From UHGV virus genome UHGV-1806156: a stretch of DNA of 13,526 nucleotides; one strand, given 5' to 3'. A program made the translations under genes and the position numbers. The first letter of the stretch is position 1, and the number at the start of each line of letters is the position of its first letter. This document shows positions 1,142 to 13,526 of this stretch, in pieces. The notes beneath the pieces were generated by a model that saw only the letters and a program-made list of their open reading frames with translations, did not search any database and was not told where the DNA came from. Source of the stretch: a virus.

Positions 1142-2038
1142 ATGGCAAGTAATTACGGGGAGGTTTTTAATCCCCATTTCGAACGCCTCATTCAGTATAC
1201 TTTTGATAAACCAGTTGCAACAACAATTGCTAATAAAAAGACTGGAAAAACAAAAGAAAGATTTAAGTTAGACCTGACGGAGGTTACAATTTATGGAAAA
1301 ATGGCAGGTTTTCATTTAAACGGGCAAGAAATATTTATCTCAGAGCAGACCTTAGCAAAAATATGTGGAGTGAGCGATAGAAAAATCCGTGATTCGATTA
1401 AATCTCTAGAAAATGCCGGGCTTATTTCTAAAGATAATCGGAAAGGCATGTCTAATATTTACAAACTACTAATTACTCCTTCACAGGTTTGCAAAATGTG
1501 TGACGCTCAAGGAATACAACCTATGAGCAATGCAGGTGGTGAAGATAAACAGCCTCAGGAAGCCCCAAAACAAGCCGCACAGCAAGCTAAAAAGGCTAAA
1601 GTAGTGCAATTGCCTACCCAAGACACTAAAGCGCCTCAAATTAACGCTGTTAGTGACAAGCCACGCCGGGGCCGTCCTGTGAAAGATGTAACCGATGGAG
1701 GGTGGATCGCCCTGGGTGAGAGTGAGGCTAAAGGCATAATGCGATCACTGTGGGAAAGCAAATACAAAGATTTAAACAAACGTCGCCCGATCCTTTTGTC
1801 AAAGATTCAGGAGGATTTTTACACCACAGAAGAGGTAAGCCGACATAAAGGGAAAATAGAGGGTGAAATCTGGAAACCGGAAGAATACTGGCATTTAACC
1901 AGACCTGTGTTTATTTTTGCAAATAAGCTTATTGGGATGGGATTTGAAATATTGTTAGATAAAACCTGCGGAGATTATCCCGAAATATTGTGGAGAAATG
2001 TTAGAAAAAATAAAAAAGGCATTTTAGAGTTTAAATAA
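1142..2038 (+). CDS. Putative replication initiator-like protein with winged helix-turn-helix, 298 aa
   Basis: ATG at 1142 preceded by GGGGGA RBS, right after the stop of the 913 ORF; the track's 1085 start is an upstream in-frame extension. The segment FISEQTLAKICGVSDRKIRDSIKSLENAGLISKDNRKG resembles the wHTH of phage and plasmid replication initiators. Function from motif recognition only. Confidence 0.45.
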   Translation: MASNYGEVFNPHFERLIQYTFDKPVATTIANKKTGKTKERFKLDLTEVTIYGKMAGFHLNGQEIFISEQTLAKICGVSDRKIRDSIKSLENAGLISKDNRKGMSNIYKLLITPSQVCKMCDAQGIQPMSNAGGEDKQPQEAPKQAAQQAKKAKVVQLPTQDTKAPQINAVSDKPRRGRPVKDVTDGGWIALGESEAKGIMRSLWESKYKDLNKRRPILLSKIQEDFYTTEEVSRHKGKIEGEIWKPEEYWHLTRPVFIFANKLIGMGFEILLDKTCGDYPEILWRNVRKNKKGILEFK

Positions 2039-6153: not shown

Positions 6154-6204
6154 TATTGTGATCAAAATCAATAAGTTAGCCTGACCGGATAAACTCCAGG
6201 CAAG

Positions 6205-6242
6205 AAAAAAGCCCCTAAGTGTTAACAAAGGGGCTCTTCTCC
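6205..6242. terminator. Hairpin terminator between convergent operons (stem AGCCCCT 6210-6216 / AGGGGCT 6229-6235)
   Basis: 7-bp GC-rich stem with 12-nt loop. On the minus strand it is followed by a run of six T (plus-strand A 6205-6210); on the plus strand by a weaker T-rich tract. Confidence 0.5.
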
Positions 6243-9429: not shown

Positions 9430-9765
9430 TTATTGTGCAACACGCAAATCGCCATTGCTGGCAGCAACAACAGCGGCTAAGCCGTCTTTGTCCACATAGG
9501 CCGGATTGATGTAGCAACCTTTGTTCGCAACAACGATAAAGGAATCACCAACTTCAGCACGTTCTACAACCAGCAGCGGAGTTTTATCTGTGTGCGTTGC
9601 TTTAACGAAGGTCTCAACCTCGCCAGCCTCAGTCACCACAACAACAGTGCCAGCCGGAATCTCAGCCTTAACTTTGTTTTTAACTTCAACGTCGCGAATA
9701 CTAAATTGCTCATCTGCGGCGTATGAAATGATGTGTCCGCGTGTGCGGATAGTCATATCTCTCAT
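9430..9765 (-). CDS. Putative head decoration protein (lambda gpD-like), 111 aa
   Basis: AGGTGA RBS before ATG 9765. Small, beta-rich (Val/Thr/Ala/Gly), immediately upstream of the capsid gene as in lambda D-E. Assignment is positional and compositional. Confidence 0.4.
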   Translation of the reverse strand: MRDMTIRTRGHIISYAADEQFSIRDVEVKNKVKAEIPAGTVVVVTEAGEVETFVKATHTDKTPLLVVERAEVGDSFIVVANKGCYINPAYVDKDGLAAVVAASNGDLRVAQ

Positions 9766-10093
9766 TTGATCACCTGCGATTTAAATTAACTCCCCTCAAA
9801 GGGCTCAGGTATAACCTCTCAAACCACGACAGGCTCGGGCCGAAAAGTTATGCCGGAAATCTAAAGGGGGATTGATATAAGGAGAGGGAGATAGCCCCGC
9901 ACCGTCCAAGCGGGGGCTATTCCACATGGGGAAACCAACAACAGTTGGCTGATAGTTCACTGCATGGTTACAGGTTGCTAGAGAGCACTATCACGAAAGG
10001 CACTCCCCCGGATCAGTTCAGGCTGCGGTCACATCAGCGGGGAAATACCTTTCGGGATAGCTACCCACACAGAAAACCCGCAAAAGAAAACTG

Positions 10094-10102
10094 TGTGGAT
10101 AA
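10094..10102 (-). promoter_or_regulatory. DnaA box (TTATCCACA on the minus strand) inside an inverted repeat (CCACACAG 10065-10072 / CTGTGTGG 10091-10098)
   Basis: Exact 9-mer match to the DnaA box consensus, read directly. Confidence 0.35.
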
Positions 10103-10248
10103 CTAGCCCTGTAGGGAGAATAAGGAGAATTAATCGACCACTCTAAGATGATCATGGGTAGTGTTATTTATAAGGCGGCACCGCTACCTGGTCGCCTTTA
10201 CTTTGGAGGAAAATACGGCAAATCACCTTCGCTAAATGATTCACGGTA

Positions 10249-10268
10249 TACTGTATATTATATCAGTA
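10249..10268. promoter_or_regulatory. LexA (SOS) box-like palindrome TACTGTATATTATATCAGTA
   Basis: CTG-N10-CAG architecture with flanking TA and an AT-rich core, as in gammaproteobacterial LexA boxes. Lies in the large intergenic region between the capsid operon and the small-peptide operon. Confidence 0.45.
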
Positions 10269-10546
10269 TTTACTCACATTGTCAACACCCTGATTATATA
10301 AATTCTAATAATTAGCGTAGTAACGGTATTTTCAGACTGCTATCAATCCCATCAATACGTCATCTCATCGCATCTATCATAACTTTTTCATTCGTGATAG
10401 ATATCTTTTGATCAATATCAATGTTTTCCGGGGATTTGCCCGGCTATAGTTCGAATCAAGGAAGGGGAGCATTGATAGAGACACCCAAAGGGGTGACTGA
10501 AAGTCACCTGGCATAGCCAGTGAAAGCACCCAACCGAACAAACAAA

Positions 10547-10564
10547 TCAACTTCTCGCAAAAGG
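10547..10564 (+). promoter_or_regulatory. Conserved leader motif TCAACTTCTCGCAAAAGG, 26 nt upstream of ATG 10573
   Basis: Repeated with the same spacing upstream of ATG 11115 (11089-11107); a third variant sits in the hairpin loop at 6281-6296. Confidence 0.4.
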
Positions 10565-10572
10565 TGATAGTT

Positions 10573-10695
10573 ATGGGTATCAAGAACAGTGCCAGCGCAT
10601 GGCAAAAGGCCAGGTTTCATCACCCACACATTGTTAAGGCAATTGAGGTGGTTGGAGTTTTAGCCCTGATGTTAGCTCTGTGTGTGGAGGTGTGA
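10573..10695 (+). CDS. Small hydrophobic peptide, 40 aa (MGIKNSASAWQKARFHHPHIVKAIEVVGVLALMLALCVEV)
   Basis: AAGGTG RBS before ATG 10573; C-terminal hydrophobic helix. Below the ORF-track cutoff. Confidence 0.35.
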   Translation: MGIKNSASAWQKARFHHPHIVKAIEVVGVLALMLALCVEV

Positions 10696-10696
10696 G

Positions 10697-10777
10697 ATGG
10701 GCAAAGGAGGCAAAGCATTTTTAATAGGTCTGGCTATCCTGGATGTTCTACTAATCATGATTAAGCGGAGTTTATGA
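10697..10777 (+). CDS. Small hydrophobic peptide, 26 aa (MGKGGKAFLIGLAILDVLLIMIKRSL)
   Basis: ATG 10697 starts 1 nt after the previous stop, with AGGTG just upstream. One predicted TM helix and a basic C-terminus. Confidence 0.3.
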   Translation: MGKGGKAFLIGLAILDVLLIMIKRSL

Positions 10778-10796
10778 ACAGCATTGAGAGGAGTTT

Positions 10797-11057
10797 ATGA
10801 CGGGGGCTAAAGATATCAGGAGACTGAGGGAAGAGCTGATAGCTGAAATTAAAACTAAGGCAAAGCAAATGGAGATAGCCGCACAAATGGATGTAGCGGA
10901 ACAGATGTACAAGATGGTTGAGGAGGGAACGCCACGACAGGTTATCGCTAAAACCTTCGGTGTGGGGATCGCCACCGTGCACAGAAGGCTGAAAGCATAT
11001 GCTGACTACCACAATATCGAGAGAAAGGAGGATGGGAGATTCAGGAAAGCTAAATGA
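10797..11057 (+). CDS. Small DNA-binding protein with a Hin/resolvase-type C-terminal HTH, 86 aa, no recombinase catalytic domain
   Basis: GAGAGGAG RBS before ATG 10797. C-terminus EEGTPRQVIAKTFGVGIATVHRRLKA closely matches the Hin invertase HTH; the N-terminus is a short charged helix only. Confidence 0.55.
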   Translation: MTGAKDIRRLREELIAEIKTKAKQMEIAAQMDVAEQMYKMVEEGTPRQVIAKTFGVGIATVHRRLKAYADYHNIERKEDGRFRKAK

Positions 11058-11088
11058 TGTAAACGGTCCAACAGGTTACTAACTTAAT

Positions 11089-11107
11089 TCAACTTCTCGC
11101 AAAGGGG
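11089..11107 (+). promoter_or_regulatory. Second copy of the leader motif (TCAACTTCTCGCAAAGGGG), 26 nt upstream of ATG 11115
   Basis: 15/15 identity with the copy at 10547 over TCAACTTCTCGCAAA, same distance to the start codon. Confidence 0.4.
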
Positions 11108-11114
11108 TACCACT

Positions 11115-11702
11115 ATGAACATTAAAACTATCATTGCAGCCCTCACCATTGCCTTTAGTGCCAACACCGCAGCTATTGATGTAGGGGCCGTAAAAGATGC
11201 ATCTTGTGCTGATAAACTGGCGGCACTTGATGCGGGATTCGATGCACCCCAGGGCTATCAAATGGGGCTATCTCTTAAAAATATTATTCTCCCCATGGAA
11301 TCTGGCGCTTATGTATACGGAGCGATAGGAAAACTGGAGAAGCCGGAAATTGACCTGCAGGGTGTGAGAGCGAAGATCACTAAAAGAAATGAAAGCCTTT
11401 GTGATGTAGCTGAAATAGCTTTCATGTCAGACGATGAAAAATCTATTTTAGTCTTTTGCAAAGATAGCGATGATAATGATCGCTTCTTTAAGATCACCCA
11501 CAACAGGCCAATCTCTTTCTACTCTAATGCTACTATGGGCGCGGGTATGCAGTGGCTGAAGAGAGCTAAATTAACTGAGATCGACATTGAAAAAGAGGCC
11601 AATGCAGGCAGTTATGGATTCTGGAAAGGCTGGACTAAATACACGTTCCAACAATGCGGCATCGATAGTCAGGCCTACGACAACGGATTTTGGTTTTTCT
11701 AA
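11115..11702 (+). CDS. Secreted or outer-membrane protein with N-terminal signal peptide, 195 aa
   Basis: N-terminus MNIKTIIAALTIAFSANTAA has the basic/hydrophobic/A-x-A shape of a Sec signal peptide. C-terminus ends in aromatics (GFWFF), as many outer-membrane beta-barrels do. No family recognised. Confidence 0.55.
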   Translation: MNIKTIIAALTIAFSANTAAIDVGAVKDASCADKLAALDAGFDAPQGYQMGLSLKNIILPMESGAYVYGAIGKLEKPEIDLQGVRAKITKRNESLCDVAEIAFMSDDEKSILVFCKDSDDNDRFFKITHNRPISFYSNATMGAGMQWLKRAKLTEIDIEKEANAGSYGFWKGWTKYTFQQCGIDSQAYDNGFWFF

Positions 11703-11722
11703 CCTACTAAGTTAATCCCGCC

Positions 11723-11750
11723 AGGGGGCCATCACGGCCCCTTTTTATTT
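11723..11750 (+). terminator. Rho-independent terminator after the signal-peptide gene
   Basis: GC-rich stem GGGGGCC (11724-11730) / GGCCCC (11736-11741) with 5-nt loop, followed by TTTTTATTT. Confidence 0.55.
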
Positions 11751-11800
11751 ATCCCCTATTTAACCCCTATTTAATGGGTATTTAATGCCTATTTATTGAT
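11746..11800. repeat. Five tandem 11-bp units of form TATTTAANNNN (helically phased A/T tracts)
   Basis: TATTTATCCCC, TATTTAACCCC, TATTTAATGGG, TATTTAATGCC, TATTTATTGAT read directly; an 11-bp period suggests bent DNA or phased binding sites. Confidence 0.5.
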
Positions 11801-13063
11801 TTAATCCGTTTTATGCCACAACCGCCCGGTTGACAGAGTAAGATAGAGTGTGTAACCCTCTTTCGTAATACCAATAAAATCAATAGTTTAGCTCAATTGG
11901 CCTTTTCTCTATTTTTGTCAAATTTAACATACCCTCAAAAACTGCAAAATCTGGCTGCAAGATTATCTGCAGCTGGATTTCTTGCGCCTCAATTTGTGGT
12001 ATCACCCTGACTAGTTTGTGCATAAATTGAACAGTTTTTAACATTTCCTCCTCACCTGGTAACCACACAAAAAGCTAAAAACGAGGCACAGATAATCTTA
12101 GAGGCCTGTTTTCTTGTTATCACTCTGGTAACGTCGTAGAAGTGATTTTGATGAAAGATGACCTACCCTATTACACCCCCATTTTTTGTTATCACAATTG
12201 CATCCTGTGCGGTGTATGGCTATGTGCTGAAAGCGGTCTTATGTGTGGGTGTCAGAAATATCCATTAGCGGTATTAATACCCGTCGGAGATTCGTCTGAG
12301 GTGCCAGGCAGGCGCTCCCCCACCTCCCTTTTTTCTTCTAACAATTCTCAAATATCACACCACTGCCCACCACGTTGCTATTATGTTAATTCTTAAGCTT
12401 TGCTGTATGTTGTGCACATTATTTATTCAGGTGGCTGTACGTAAATTCTGTGCCCACTGATCATGATTTTTAAATCAGATTTTGTAGTGCGCTTTATTAG
12501 TGTAGATAAGATCTATTATGTTAAATGCATCTCTCTCAACACTTAAAATCAATGACTTAGAGGTTAGGATGCACTAACACCCCACACAGCACATTAGACA
12601 TATAGATGTCTATACCCCACATTTTTGATTGTTTTGTAGTCATTCCCCTGATCATTTAACCAGTATAGTTTGCTCCCTGCAGACCACAAAATCGGAATTT
12701 ACATCTGATTAACATAATCTGTTAGCATGATCACCATTACCCACACAACAATAACCACATGTAAGCCTCTTCAGGCAATTTATCGGCGTGTTGGTGTGAA
12801 CAGTCTTTCATGTTCTTTATGTATTCATTGTCCTGTGTGAGGGAAGGATGGACTGCCCCAGGGGCCATACTTATGATGCCCGGTCAACATACCTGTCGAT
12901 AAAATCAAAGGGTGTTGATCTGCATATTTCCCACACATGAGAGGAAATCAAAGCAAAGAGAGAGGAGAGAGGTTTGTTAGTCAAAATAGGTCAATAAGGG
13001 TGTATTTCCACACAGACATGATGAGATAACCTGTCGGTATTTCCTACAACTCTTGCACATACC

Positions 13064-13341
13064 CCGGAAGATTTTTCCGGTGTCTCCCACCTGTGAAGAA
13101 TTTTCACACCTGTAAATCCATACAGCACGGTAAAAACTACCGCACCACCTGTGAAAATATTTTACTACTCCCTTTAGTCATACCCCTTTCAGTCATACTC
13201 AGGCACCACACCCCGGTAAATATTTCCCTACCACCCCGGAGAATTTCTCCGGTGTCCAAGCTGTATCCAATACATACCCCGGAAAATTTCTCCGCACTAC
13301 TACGGAAGATTTCTCCGGTGTACCCCGGAAGATTTCTCCGA
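13064..13341. repeat. Iteron-like array of at least 8 copies of a 17-bp quasi-palindrome (consensus about CCGGARRATTTCTCCGG)
   Basis: Copies at 13064-13080, 13236-13252 (perfect palindrome CCGGAGAATTTCTCCGG), 13279-13295, 13302-13318 and 13325-13341, the last three spaced exactly 23 bp apart. Related variants at about 13094-13108, 13150-13164 and 13214-13226. Confidence 0.6.
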
Positions 13342-13428
13342 CTAATAAATAAAGTAATAGACCACACAATAGATCCCCCCTAACCCCCAAGGGGAATGGG
13401 GAGGGATCAGAGAGTGGGGAAGGTTTTC

Positions 13429-13526
13429 TAAGGGAAAAGCTTAACCCACAAATGAAAGCCTAAAGAGCATGAGCGACTCTTCAGGCAATCTGTGTGGGGA
13501 ACATCGGAGCAGTATGTGAAGTATGA
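13429..13526. repeat. Right copy of the 98-bp direct repeat
   Basis: Matches 1-98 with one mismatch (C at 13482 vs T at 54). Confidence 0.9.

Follow-up and report, generated by a model that had tools for sequence, protein, structure and literature searches.

Two tandem open reading frames, sORF1 and sORF2, lie at the head of an operon that also encodes an HTH protein and a secreted protein (Table 1). The preliminary description had placed two tiny ORFs of 40 and 26 aa there; their coordinates are correct, and the single nucleotide between them is G10696. The element that carries them is a 13.5-kb phage-satellite-like E. coli plasmid, and we refer to the whole stretch of DNA that was analysed (13,526 nucleotides) as the window. 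This plasmid appears to be a satellite of virulent rV5-like phages. Literature searches on this plasmid family and on rV5 satellites found no relevant description.

Table 1. Features of the sORF1-sORF2 locus and its surroundings, in window coordinates.
Feature	Position	Strand	Remarks
LexA box TACTGTATATTATATCAGTA (10249-10268) and promoter	10249-10285	-	Neighbour, outside the operon; box unique in the window
FNR-type box, perfect, TTGATCAATATCAA (TTGAT-N4-ATCAA)	10408-10421	.	Sole exact match in the window
Candidate -10 hexamer TATAGT	10445-10450	+	23 bp 3′ of the FNR-type box; no -35; predicted start ~10456
Variable 48-nt insert with three small hairpins	10479-10526	+	In the window, L003 and L004; absent in most relatives
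Conserved motif AACTTCTCGCAAA	10549-10561	+	Directly 5′ of the sORF1 SD
sORF1	10573-10695	+	ATG 10573, TGA 10693-10695; 40 aa, MGIKNSASAWQKARFHHPHIVKAIEVVGVLALMLALCVEV
sORF2	10697-10777	+	ATG 10697, TGA 10775-10777; 26 aa, MGKGGKAFLIGLAILDVLLIMIKRSL
T5 run within sORF2	10718-10722	+	Recurrent frameshift; T5 to T4 gives 8 aa in L007, L013, L018, L027 and the N-containing L028
Second T run of sORF2	~10744-10747	+	T4 to T5 gives 22 aa in L015, L016, L020, L021 and L022
Bridging ORF, 8 codons (MNSIERSL)	10774-10800	+	From a 23-nt tandem duplication of the HTH ribosome-binding region
HTH_7-type DNA-binding protein, 86 aa	10797-11057	+	Pfam HTH_7 3.6e-6; dN/dS 0.08-0.13
Second copy of AACTTCTCGCAAA	11091-11103	+	5′ of the SD of the secreted-protein gene
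Secreted-protein gene, 195 aa	11115-11702	+	N-terminal signal-like hydrophobic segment; variable cargo of the operon
Intrinsic-terminator-like hairpin and T run	11723-11752	+	Probable operon end

The sORF1 peptide has a basic N-terminal half and a conserved Pro18; its hydrophobic helix is C-terminal and holds four invariant residues (E25, M33, C37 and E39). At only 13 residues, the hydrophobic core between the two invariant glutamates is short compared with a canonical TM helix. In the sORF2 peptide, a basic N-terminus is followed by a predicted TM helix with a central Asp16 and by a C-terminal KRSL. Each peptide has one 17-residue hydrophobic stretch with a mean Kyte-Doolittle value of 2.4 (KD17 of 2.43 and 2.45), and the single-TM character first attributed to both is plausible on this scale. 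Both had also been credited with good ribosome-binding sites. This holds for sORF2, whose anti-SD duplex energy of -10.6 kcal/mol (GGAGGUG) is very strong and the strongest in the region, the site of sORF1 being moderate (-4.3 kcal/mol, AAGGUGA). For comparison, the mean over the 452 ATGs of the window is -2.3, and 3% of them reach -8.

Such a combination of traits is rare. On both strands of the window, sORF1 and sORF2 are the only ORFs that start with ATG, encode 25-60 aa, have an SD of -4 or lower and a KD17 of at least 2.4; 0.085 such ORFs are expected by chance, and a tandem pair arose in none of 200 first-order Markov simulations. We read the two frames as genuine protein-coding cistrons and not as chance ORFs. 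As anticipated, routine annotation misses them: neither is annotated in any of the eight GenBank/RefSeq records of the family, and sORF1 is called by a few gene callers. Two other candidates for the sORF1 frame were rejected. The in-frame GTG located upstream at 10564 lacks an SD (+1.9 kcal/mol) as well as conservation, and the 75-aa call P0013 is an overcall that exists only in variants devoid of the 48-nt leader insert, its frame being closed in the window.

We compared 28 related loci of the 13.5-kb family, for which more than 200 contigs are indexed and whose deep clade consists of L009-L011, and a second plasmid family, L029-L031. An exact DNA anchor from the HTH gene retrieved three metagenome contigs and no entry in the genome or viral collections, and peptide-pattern scans of the viral and genome collections found no relatives via the HTH protein. 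A nucleotide search of the phage database with the region gave no match; by tblastn against it, sORF1 had matches only at E ~6, which is noise, and the HTH protein none. Conservation of the reading frames had been proposed as a check on the two ORFs. sORF1 is intact in all 28 loci, and its 30 variable sites fall on codon positions 1, 2 and 3 in the proportions 3/6/21 (chi-square p=9e-5), third positions thus varying most. Nei-Gojobori dN/dS values, computed against or within the deep clade, are 0.19, 0.09 and 0.13 at dS of 0.24-1.1, similar to those of the HTH gene taken as a control (0.08-0.13), and permutation of the substitutions gave P=0.0003. Judged from these substitution patterns, the sORF1 peptide is under purifying selection, and we regard sORF1 with high confidence as a functional protein gene. 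Synonymous change is almost nil in its last 33 nt; some of the strong conservation of the DNA around 10660-10730 could stem from a constraint other than coding.

Relatives of sORF1 also exist outside the 13.5-kb family. Searched with a profile HMM, a set of 1.84 billion representatives yielded three clusters only, two of which are remote 40-aa homologues (P0014 and P0015). They are 53% and 48% identical to sORF1, and E25, M33, C37 and E39 are invariant across the families. The gene is exactly 40 codons long in all three lineages of phage-satellite-like elements and heads an operon in each, its range covering islands of the intZ/CPZ-55 type and two plasmid lineages with genes for capsid and tail proteins. 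In the second plasmid family, one remote homologue heads the operon, followed by an HTH homologue; in L029, this 89-aa protein is 59% identical to the 86-aa HTH protein, and its gene has an SD of its own and starts 16 nt past the stop of sORF1. The other homologue opens an operon in intZ islands that have inserted between eutB and eutA. Finally, CPZ-55 of E. coli K-12 keeps a 20-aa remnant with the E...M...C.E pattern. This remnant has no entry in one supplementary file of an E. coli K-12 Ribo-seq paper, and literature searches on small proteins in CPZ-55 and around yffP/yffQ found nothing relevant.

The history of sORF2 is different. Neither L029-L031 nor the intZ islands carry it; it is a lineage-specific add-on of the 13.5-kb family. 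In the deep clade, it is kept as a 28-aa ORF that retains frame, start, SD and hydrophobicity despite the insertion of a third sORF (35 aa) before it; searches of PHROGs, Pfam, NCBIfam and PADLOC assigned none of the three sORFs to a family. The check on frame conservation is here weakly positive on one side, with pairwise dN/dS of 0.09-0.34, the frame kept in the deep clade and variable sites distributed 9/3/7 over the codon positions, second positions having the fewest, and negative on the other, the permutation test giving P=0.12. In addition, sORF2 is frameshifted in six of the 24 unique sequences used for this count, in at least three events, and the truncated variants are dispersed over the tree. 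Because of these frameshifts, sORF2 is dispensable or counter-selected.

sORF2 may be decaying rather than functional, or it could be an accidental ORF in DNA conserved for another reason. The frameshifts and the permutation result speak for this, as does its absence from both other lineages with sORF1. We nevertheless consider it rather unlikely, since sORF2 has the strongest SD of the region, since both sides of the family's deepest split retain its start codon, its frame and a hydrophobic helix without interruption, since its changes are for the most part conservative and at first or third codon positions, and since its stop is in every case linked to the start that follows. On balance, sORF2 is probably a functional protein gene, and it would encode an accessory membrane peptide, probably mildly toxic.

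The position of the two sORFs as leading cistrons of the HTH and secreted-protein operon, proposed at the outset, is borne out by the layout of the region. We predict a five-cistron operon (sORF1, sORF2, the 8-codon bridge, the HTH gene and the secreted cargo) that would run from a start at ~10456 to the terminator at ~11750. Its successive junctions, TGA-G-ATG, ATGA and ATGA, have the anatomy of termination-reinitiation coupling: the ATG of the bridge overlaps the sORF2 stop, and its stop overlaps the ATG of the HTH gene. The underlying repeat, D1, occupies 10760-10777 and 10783-10800. In L005, which has a single D1 copy, sORF2 overlaps the HTH ATG directly, and in L009-L011 the HTH ATG is overlapped by the sORF2 stop. 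Ribosomes that have translated the small cistrons may in this way feed the HTH gene. The AACTTCTCGCAAA motif has exactly two copies in the window and is conserved before both genes, sORF1 and the secreted-protein gene, in both plasmid families.

Such chaining raises the question of whether the sORFs are purely regulatory uORFs, in which the act of translation would set HTH expression, by coupling or by unmasking downstream sites, and the peptides would be irrelevant. Every junction is a termination-reinitiation overlap, and the 23-nt duplication, which should have broken the chain, instead made the bridge that restores it. The sORF2 stop that overlaps the HTH ATG in L009-L011 and the statistically weak selection on sORF2 at the amino-acid level fit as well. 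However, the sORF1 peptide is under purifying selection (dN/dS ~0.1), its four invariant residues being kept at 48-53% identity, and its length is the same in three lineages. Moreover, the HTH gene has a strong SD of its own (-8.6), its homologue in L029 starts beyond the sORF1 stop with its own SD, and elements with a truncated sORF2 persist. A purely regulatory function is for these reasons quite improbable; a regulatory role could exist in addition to that of the peptides, and it could be the main one for sORF2.

Upstream of the operon, the perfect FNR-type box is found at the homologous place in 28/28 loci of the family, with invariant half-sites and an N4 of CAAT or CCTG; the second plasmid family carries TTGATGTAGATCAC. 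The candidate -10 hexamer TATAGT is invariant in all loci of the 13.5-kb family and is replaced by TAAAGT at the same spacing in L029-L031. These elements resemble those of class II FNR-activated promoters by the perfect consensus box, the lack of a -35, a -10-like hexamer at a distance that may be appropriate and conserved half-sites around a varying N4. They differ by the gap to the -10, which is 23 bp here and 22 bp, by our own geometry, for a site centred at -41.5, and by the fact that the related CPZ-55-type islands have a CRP-like site and not an FNR-like one. From these motifs, a class II FNR-type promoter probably drives the operon. Its expression would then be induced anaerobically, as in the gut, and independently of the diverging LexA-controlled capsid operon.

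The preliminary description also mentioned a LexA-like box about 300 bp upstream of the sORFs, and this distance is numerically right. The LexA control that it implied does not follow. On the minus strand, a perfect TTGACA-17-TATAAT promoter (12/12 consensus) is directed leftwards to the capsid operon; its -10 is overlapped by the box, and both box and promoter are conserved in the deep clade. On the plus strand, a promoter scan found no sigma-70 consensus site in 9700-12200, the surroundings of the LexA box included, where its only hit is on the minus strand. Likewise, the long structured leader that had been suggested shrinks to a predicted ~117 nt (~57-69 nt in relatives). Fold z-scores against shuffles are -1.14 for 10456-10620, +0.56 for 10456-10830 and -1.49 for 10270-10580, so that no special RNA structure better than shuffles was found in the leader/sORF region. 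The 48-nt insert of this leader is absent in most relatives and is thus dispensable for the operon.

Which function can be proposed for the peptides? Both are small (<60 aa) and hydrophobic, and a type I toxin was among the first candidates. In this explanation, one or both would be membrane-depolarising toxins that stabilise the plasmid by post-segregational killing under the control of an RNA antitoxin. Their size, charge pattern and hydropathy resemble those of TisB, DinQ, ShoB and Hok, and their KD17 values lie in the range of these toxins. Length, hydropathy and charge distribution are shared more widely with the Hok/Gef, TisB, DinQ, ShoB, Ldr, Ibs and ZorO toxins, and sORF2 is especially like the 26-29-aa peptides of the TisB/DinQ kind. 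The element is a plasmid, no partition or TA system was seen among the plasmid ORFs scanned, and the recurrent inactivation of sORF2 in nature, at least three times independently at T runs, is as expected for a costly gene.

The other marks of a classical type I system were not found at the locus. A search of the whole window against Rfam gave two sub-threshold, chance-level matches elsewhere; at E<=1, no known sRNA or type I antitoxin family matched either strand of the region. Across 10300-10800, the minus strand has no promoter-like site and one weak terminator-like hairpin (10604-10590), and the nearby LexA box serves the opposite strand. The SDs are exposed and strong instead of sequestered, and the 5′ UTR is not significantly structured. 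Unlike type I toxins, the peptides are encoded polycistronically, in an arrangement coupled to a regulator gene. At E<=1, searches of Pfam and NCBIfam placed the peptides in none of the Hok/Gef, TisB, Ldr, Ibs, ShoB, Fst or similar families. Moreover, sORF1 is never inactivated and also occurs in chromosomal islands, where addiction is unneeded. A type I toxin-antitoxin system is therefore an unlikely explanation of the pair.

Lysis control, another early candidate, fares worse. The sORFs would form a holin/antiholin pair or, in a satellite, modulate the timing of helper lysis like LidI, a small TM protein of the Vibrio cholerae PLE. The resemblance of the element to a satellite of virulent rV5-like phages speaks for it, as does the fact that lysis timing usually depends on small TM peptides, and the two adjacent TM peptides are superficially like holin/antiholin pairs. 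What they share with holins, antiholins and LidI is to be small TM peptides from a phage-related element. However, no endolysin or spanin was found anywhere in the 13.5-kb element, and the downstream secreted protein has no lysozyme- or muramidase-like fold. Typical holins have 60 aa or more, and 40 and 26 aa are well below. Each sORF has one ATG, no dual-start motif and a single hydrophobic stretch, and neither matched a holin family in PHROGs, Pfam or NCBIfam. In addition, the operon diverges from the structural operon, its predicted promoter is of a host type (FNR-like) and not a late or SOS one, sORF2 is dispensable, and there is no homology to these proteins. We thus consider a role in lysis very improbable.

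Our best reading, by analogy, is that sORF1 and sORF2 encode small membrane-protein effectors of an envelope-directed operon expressed in the carrier state. The composite explanation, which combines coding genes, an FNR-type operon and membrane effectors, seems to us somewhat better than an even bet; its more specific part, a modulator of the small-membrane-protein kind or a role in envelope protection, is put forward tentatively. The sORF1 peptide would insert N-in as a tail-anchored inner-membrane peptide and would bind and modulate a protein or process of the carrier-cell membrane, in the manner of known small membrane proteins of bacteria. With the variable periplasmic protein, it may form an envelope-directed module, for example for the exclusion of, or defence against, incoming phage, rather than a lysis device.

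The closest parallels are MgrB, AcrZ, MgtS, KdpF and CydX, small single-TM proteins of E. coli that modulate larger membrane proteins. Like them, the sORF peptides have at most 50 aa, one hydrophobic helix with a basic cytoplasmic flank and conserved polar residues in or beside the helix; they are missed by annotation, and sORF1 is under purifying selection. Unlike them, they are encoded on mobile satellite-like elements as first cistrons of accessory operons and show no sequence relationship to them in Pfam or NCBIfam, and the peptide here would be tail-anchored, with its C-terminus inside or at the edge of the helix. A second parallel is offered by the membrane proteins of prophage morons and superinfection exclusion (T4 Imm, HK97 gp15 and P22 Sie). 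These are also expressed from a resident element and not for lytic growth, are membrane-located, as is predicted here, and likewise adjoin a variable, envelope-targeted cargo gene. The sORF peptides are much smaller and without homology to them, and superinfection exclusion may, by analogy, be a role of the pair.

More speculatively, sORF1 could found an undescribed family of 40-residue tail-anchored membrane peptides restricted to enterobacterial phage satellites, always encoded by the first cistron of an accessory or regulatory operon. Such peptides would act as effectors on a membrane process of the host or of the helper phage (phage DNA entry, lysis timing or membrane-potential sensing) and, in this plasmid, would be switched on by FNR in the anaerobic gut; we find this extension, as a whole, doubtful.

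Annotation systematically overlooks small membrane proteins, and phage satellites have so far yielded few of them. sORF1 adds a statistically supported 40-codon gene, present in three satellite-like lineages that include the CPZ-55 remnant of K-12, and this remnant makes the family easy to test in a standard strain. Should the peptides prove to act on phage entry, on the timing of lysis or on plasmid maintenance, they would be a new small effector in satellite-helper biology; otherwise, sORF1 and sORF2 are still a useful correction of annotation. The corrected regulation also matters for the plasmid family, with an FNR-type promoter assigned to the accessory operon and the LexA-controlled consensus promoter to the capsid operon.

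The two small ORFs are real and their absence from annotation is a genuine gap. sORF1 and sORF2, separated by one nucleotide, lie exactly where the preliminary description had placed them, and each peptide contains one 17-residue stretch with a mean hydropathy of 2.4, in agreement with the single TM helix predicted for each. On both strands of the window, they are the sole ATG-ORFs of 25-60 aa that combine such hydropathy with a Shine-Dalgarno (SD) sequence; Markov simulations (200 runs) gave 0.085 such ORFs expected and a tandem pair in 0/200, so that the pair is not due to chance. The good ribosome-binding sites attributed to both hold for sORF2, with a very strong anti-SD pairing energy (-10.6 kcal/mol), while that of sORF1 is only moderate (-4.3; window-wide mean -2.3). 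As anticipated, both are missed by routine annotation: none of the eight database records carries either ORF, and neither has a family match in PHROGs, Pfam, NCBIfam, PADLOC or Rfam.

Coordinates of the small ORFs and of the regulatory features, in the window unless a locus is named
Feature	Position	Strand	Remark
sORF1	10573..10695	+	40 aa
sORF2	10697..10777	+	26 aa; one base after sORF1
8-codon bridging ORF MNSIERSL	10774..10800	+	its stop overlaps the HTH ATG (ATGA)
TTGACA-17-TATAAT promoter with TG extension	10249-10285	-	-10 inside the LexA box; 12/12 consensus
FNR-type box TTGATCAATATCAA	10408-10421	+	exact consensus, sole one in the window
Inverted repeats around the FNR box	10340-10347/10471-10478; 10372-10379/10395-10402; 10416-10423/10470-10477		
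Motif (A)CAAC(T/C)TCTCGCAAA(A)GG	10549-10561, 11091-11103; L029 (second plasmid family) 3486, 3931		5' of both SDs
Third sORF	L009 10126..10233; L011 2424..2531 (deep clade)		35 aa, acidic; MSQAEM(V/I)IKAEELLERLQKAMDDAWNLIEELHEED
CPZ-55 remnant MKRWEVALLVMVMLVCCIEL	L037 (E. coli K-12 CPZ-55 region) 1609..1671		between yffP and yffQ

We showed that sORF1 is a gene under purifying selection. The 28 homologous loci of the 13.5-kb plasmid family yielded 25 unique region sequences, 24 of which were aligned after exclusion of L028, which contains Ns. sORF1 is intact in 28/28 loci, and its 30 variable sites are distributed 3/6/21 over codon positions 1/2/3 (chi-square p=9e-5). Compared with L009-L011, the deepest clade of the family, its dN/dS is 0.09-0.19 at dS 0.7-1.1, a range like that of the adjoining HTH gene (0.08-0.12), and random redistribution of the substitutions produced equally few non-synonymous changes in 3/10,000 cases. 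Given this intact frame, low dN/dS and codon-position bias, the equal tolerance of synonymous and non-synonymous changes that the preliminary description regarded as evidence against a gene was not found for sORF1. Because selection acts on the peptide itself, a role as a pure leader ORF is excluded for sORF1; it is possible for sORF2.

Searched with a profile, 1.84 billion representative proteins gave just three clusters: sORF1 itself and two remote homologues, each of exactly 40 aa. The first, MGIKNSAGTWTKFKYHHPHMALMTELLGVVAIMMIMCVEF, belongs to a second plasmid-like family, which is more divergent and has the same architecture; its gene immediately precedes that of an HTH homologue with 59% identity. 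The second, MGIRNNAGWWRKFKHFHPEIGLVLEVIGVLVMMLVMCCEF, heads an operon of the intZ islands, which sit between eutB and eutA and encode an integrase, an AlpA-like HTH protein, a Sf6-type small terminase, a PPIase and a resolvase. The cryptic prophage CPZ-55 of E. coli K-12 sits at the same eutB/eutA site and harbours, just upstream of yffQ, an unannotated 20-codon remnant with a strong SD (GGGAGG) that is homologous to the TM half of sORF1; by offset arithmetic, we take it to lie at about 2563518..2563580 in NC_000913.3. The ~110 nt upstream of this remnant are 85% identical to the leader of the intZ islands carrying the full 40-aa gene. E25, M33, C37 and E39 are invariant in sORF1, both remote homologues and the remnant. 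As far as the 1.84 billion representatives show, sORF1 thus defines a small, hitherto unnamed family confined to enterobacterial satellite-like elements. Small hydrophobic peptides on mobile elements are a well-known kind, and no new mechanism is demonstrated for the pair.

The evidence for sORF2 is mixed. Its start, SD, frame and hydrophobic character are retained across the deepest split of the family, its pairwise dN/dS is 0.09-0.34 and its second codon position is the least variable (9/3/7), but significance is not reached in the permutation test (P=0.12), and frameshifts at two short T runs affect six of the 24 unique sequences, T5 to T4 leaving 8 aa and T4 to T5 leaving 22 aa. L028, left out of the alignment, likewise has the T4 allele. 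These truncated variants lie in scattered positions on the tree, so that at least three events arose independently; the plasmids can hence do without sORF2, and some hosts may select against it. This repeated inactivation, together with the likeness of sORF2 to TisB/DinQ-type peptides, keeps toxicity in play. sORF2 is confined to the 13.5-kb family: in the second plasmid family (L029-L031), only 16 nt separate the sORF1 stop from the HTH start, and in the intZ islands the gap is 36 nt. In the deep clade, a third small ORF (net charge -8) lies between sORF1 and sORF2, with no family match in Pfam, NCBIfam or PADLOC; in the intZ islands, the ORF after sORF1 likewise encodes a protein that is acidic by its sequence (74 aa).

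The cistrons of the operon form a chain. One base separates the sORF1 stop from the sORF2 ATG, and the sORF2 stop overlaps the ATG (ATGA) of an 8-codon ORF that arose when 23 nt of the HTH ribosome-binding region were duplicated in tandem. In L005, where this repeat is single-copy, sORF2 overlaps the HTH ATG directly, and in the deep clade the sORF2/HTH overlap is 8 nt. Since the chain survives a non-triplet duplication, we infer that termination-reinitiation coupling is under selection. A classical type I toxin-antitoxin system, as had been proposed, is unsupported: the sORFs are polycistronic and coupled, no antisense promoter or sRNA signal was found, the SD is not sequestered, and sORF1 also occurs in chromosomal islands. 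Downstream of the HTH gene come a variable gene, whose product has a signal-like N-terminus, and then a terminator-like hairpin at 11723. This secreted-protein gene (11115-11702) is the variable cargo slot of the operon, with alleles of 165-236 aa, some of which share just a CKDxxxNDR(F/W)...HN core (E=6e-7 between families); outside these plasmids, the search for homologues of the cargo protein found none. A 13-nt motif, AACTTCTCGCAAA, directly precedes the SD of sORF1 as well as that of the secreted-protein gene, and it is conserved across the two plasmid families. Its candidate roles are those of a translational enhancer, a regulator site or a cassette boundary; it bears a loose resemblance to the T7 gene 10 'epsilon' enhancer UUAACUUUA.

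The LexA-like box TACTGTATATTATATCAGTA (10249-10268) is genuine and unique in the window, but the link drawn from it to the sORF operon is not supported: it overlaps an opposite-strand promoter that faces the capsid operon. As the -10 of this promoter lies within the box, the capsid operon looks to be under direct SOS control. The left CTG half-site loses its C in four of nine aligned relatives (L001, L005, L006 and L008), in which LexA control may thus be lost. The ~480-nt leader from this promoter to the first gene of the capsid operon (9766-10250, especially 9979-10230) is nearly invariant among relatives, with a conservation above that of the flanking coding DNA, and is mostly retained in the divergent clade; it has no Rfam match, and a packaging site, an RNA element or an origin may reside in it.

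The promoter scan that detected the capsid promoter found no plus-strand promoter-like site in 9700-12200. An FNR-type box is exact in 28/28 family loci, with two N4 spacers (CAAT and CCTG), while by our own arithmetic chance would give roughly 0.01-0.03 exact matches per window of that size. An invariant TATAGT follows 23 bp after the box; in the second plasmid family, TTGATGTAGATCAC is followed after 23 bp by TAAAGT. Such a geometry would fit class II activator-dependent promoters (FNR/CRP promoters). The sequence thus suggests that an FNR-type class II promoter drives the sORF operon, with a predicted start near 10456 and a leader of ~117 nt, or ~57-69 nt in relatives without a dispensable 48-nt hairpin insert. 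This hairpin-rich indel (10479-10526) is present in the window, L003 and L004, and another of 68 nt at ~10368 only in L002-L004; both resemble small insertions of patchy distribution, and more indels occur at 9800-9830 in L007, L009 and L010. The long structured leader put forward earlier finds no support in the fold z-scores (leader, -1.1; leader with sORFs, +0.56; whole stretch from the LexA box, -1.5). Half-site-like (C)TATCAAT / ATTGATAG repeats, kept in the deep clade, flank the FNR box as inverted repeats within 10341-10481 and are possibly operators of the HTH protein or extra FNR half-sites. The predicted promoter is not a late promoter, the element encodes no endolysin or spanin, and both peptides are too small and have no dual start, which makes the holin/antiholin role initially proposed unlikely.

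The statements on the sORFs at the level of the genes come from observation; their promoter, coupling, topology and function are inferred. sORF1 would be a tail-anchored (N-in) small inner-membrane protein that, in the manner of known small membrane proteins of bacteria, binds a partner in the membrane, and would be made in the carrier state alongside the HTH regulator and the variable periplasmic cargo protein; envelope-level protection or modification would be the purpose of the module. sORF2 would be an accessory membrane peptide, probably costly, and both may in addition couple translation to the HTH gene.

The plasmid itself is a more unusual object than the sORFs. The window is essentially one full copy of a circular E. 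coli plasmid family of ~13.2-13.7 kb, classed as non-mobilizable by MOB-suite, of which no description was found in literature searches. The family is common among assemblies: its HTH protein occurs in 228 assembly blocks of one index, mostly on 10-20 kb contigs. Besides an O-like replication initiator, the element encodes tape-measure and tail-completion proteins, a major capsid protein, a Dit-like 'tail tube initiator' and few other proteins; among its ORFs, PHROGs search included, neither a terminase or portal nor an integrase or lysis gene was seen. The Dit-like protein shares ~50% identity with proteins from rV5-like Vequintavirinae phages. The element has the appearance of a phage satellite carried on a plasmid, with virulent rV5-like phages as its helpers. 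The sORFs open its only rightward accessory operon, flanked by the minus-strand capsid operon and a large gene-free region. This region, ~2.7 kb without a convincing gene (11750-13526 and 1-900, spanning the arbitrary start of the plasmid), presumably contains an origin, iterons or a packaging site; in L001, L002 and L010, the sole ORF annotated or called in this stretch has 49 aa. At 6200-6240 (-), just downstream of the tape-measure gene, Rfam gives a match to ctRNA_p42d that stays below threshold (23.6 bits for a gathering score of 50, E=0.25) and is probably due to chance. Finally, p3RM10740 (L002, NZ_CP043822.1, 39.6 kb) appears to be approximately a trimer of the 13.5-kb unit, one unit being partly degraded with truncated baseplate and capsid genes.
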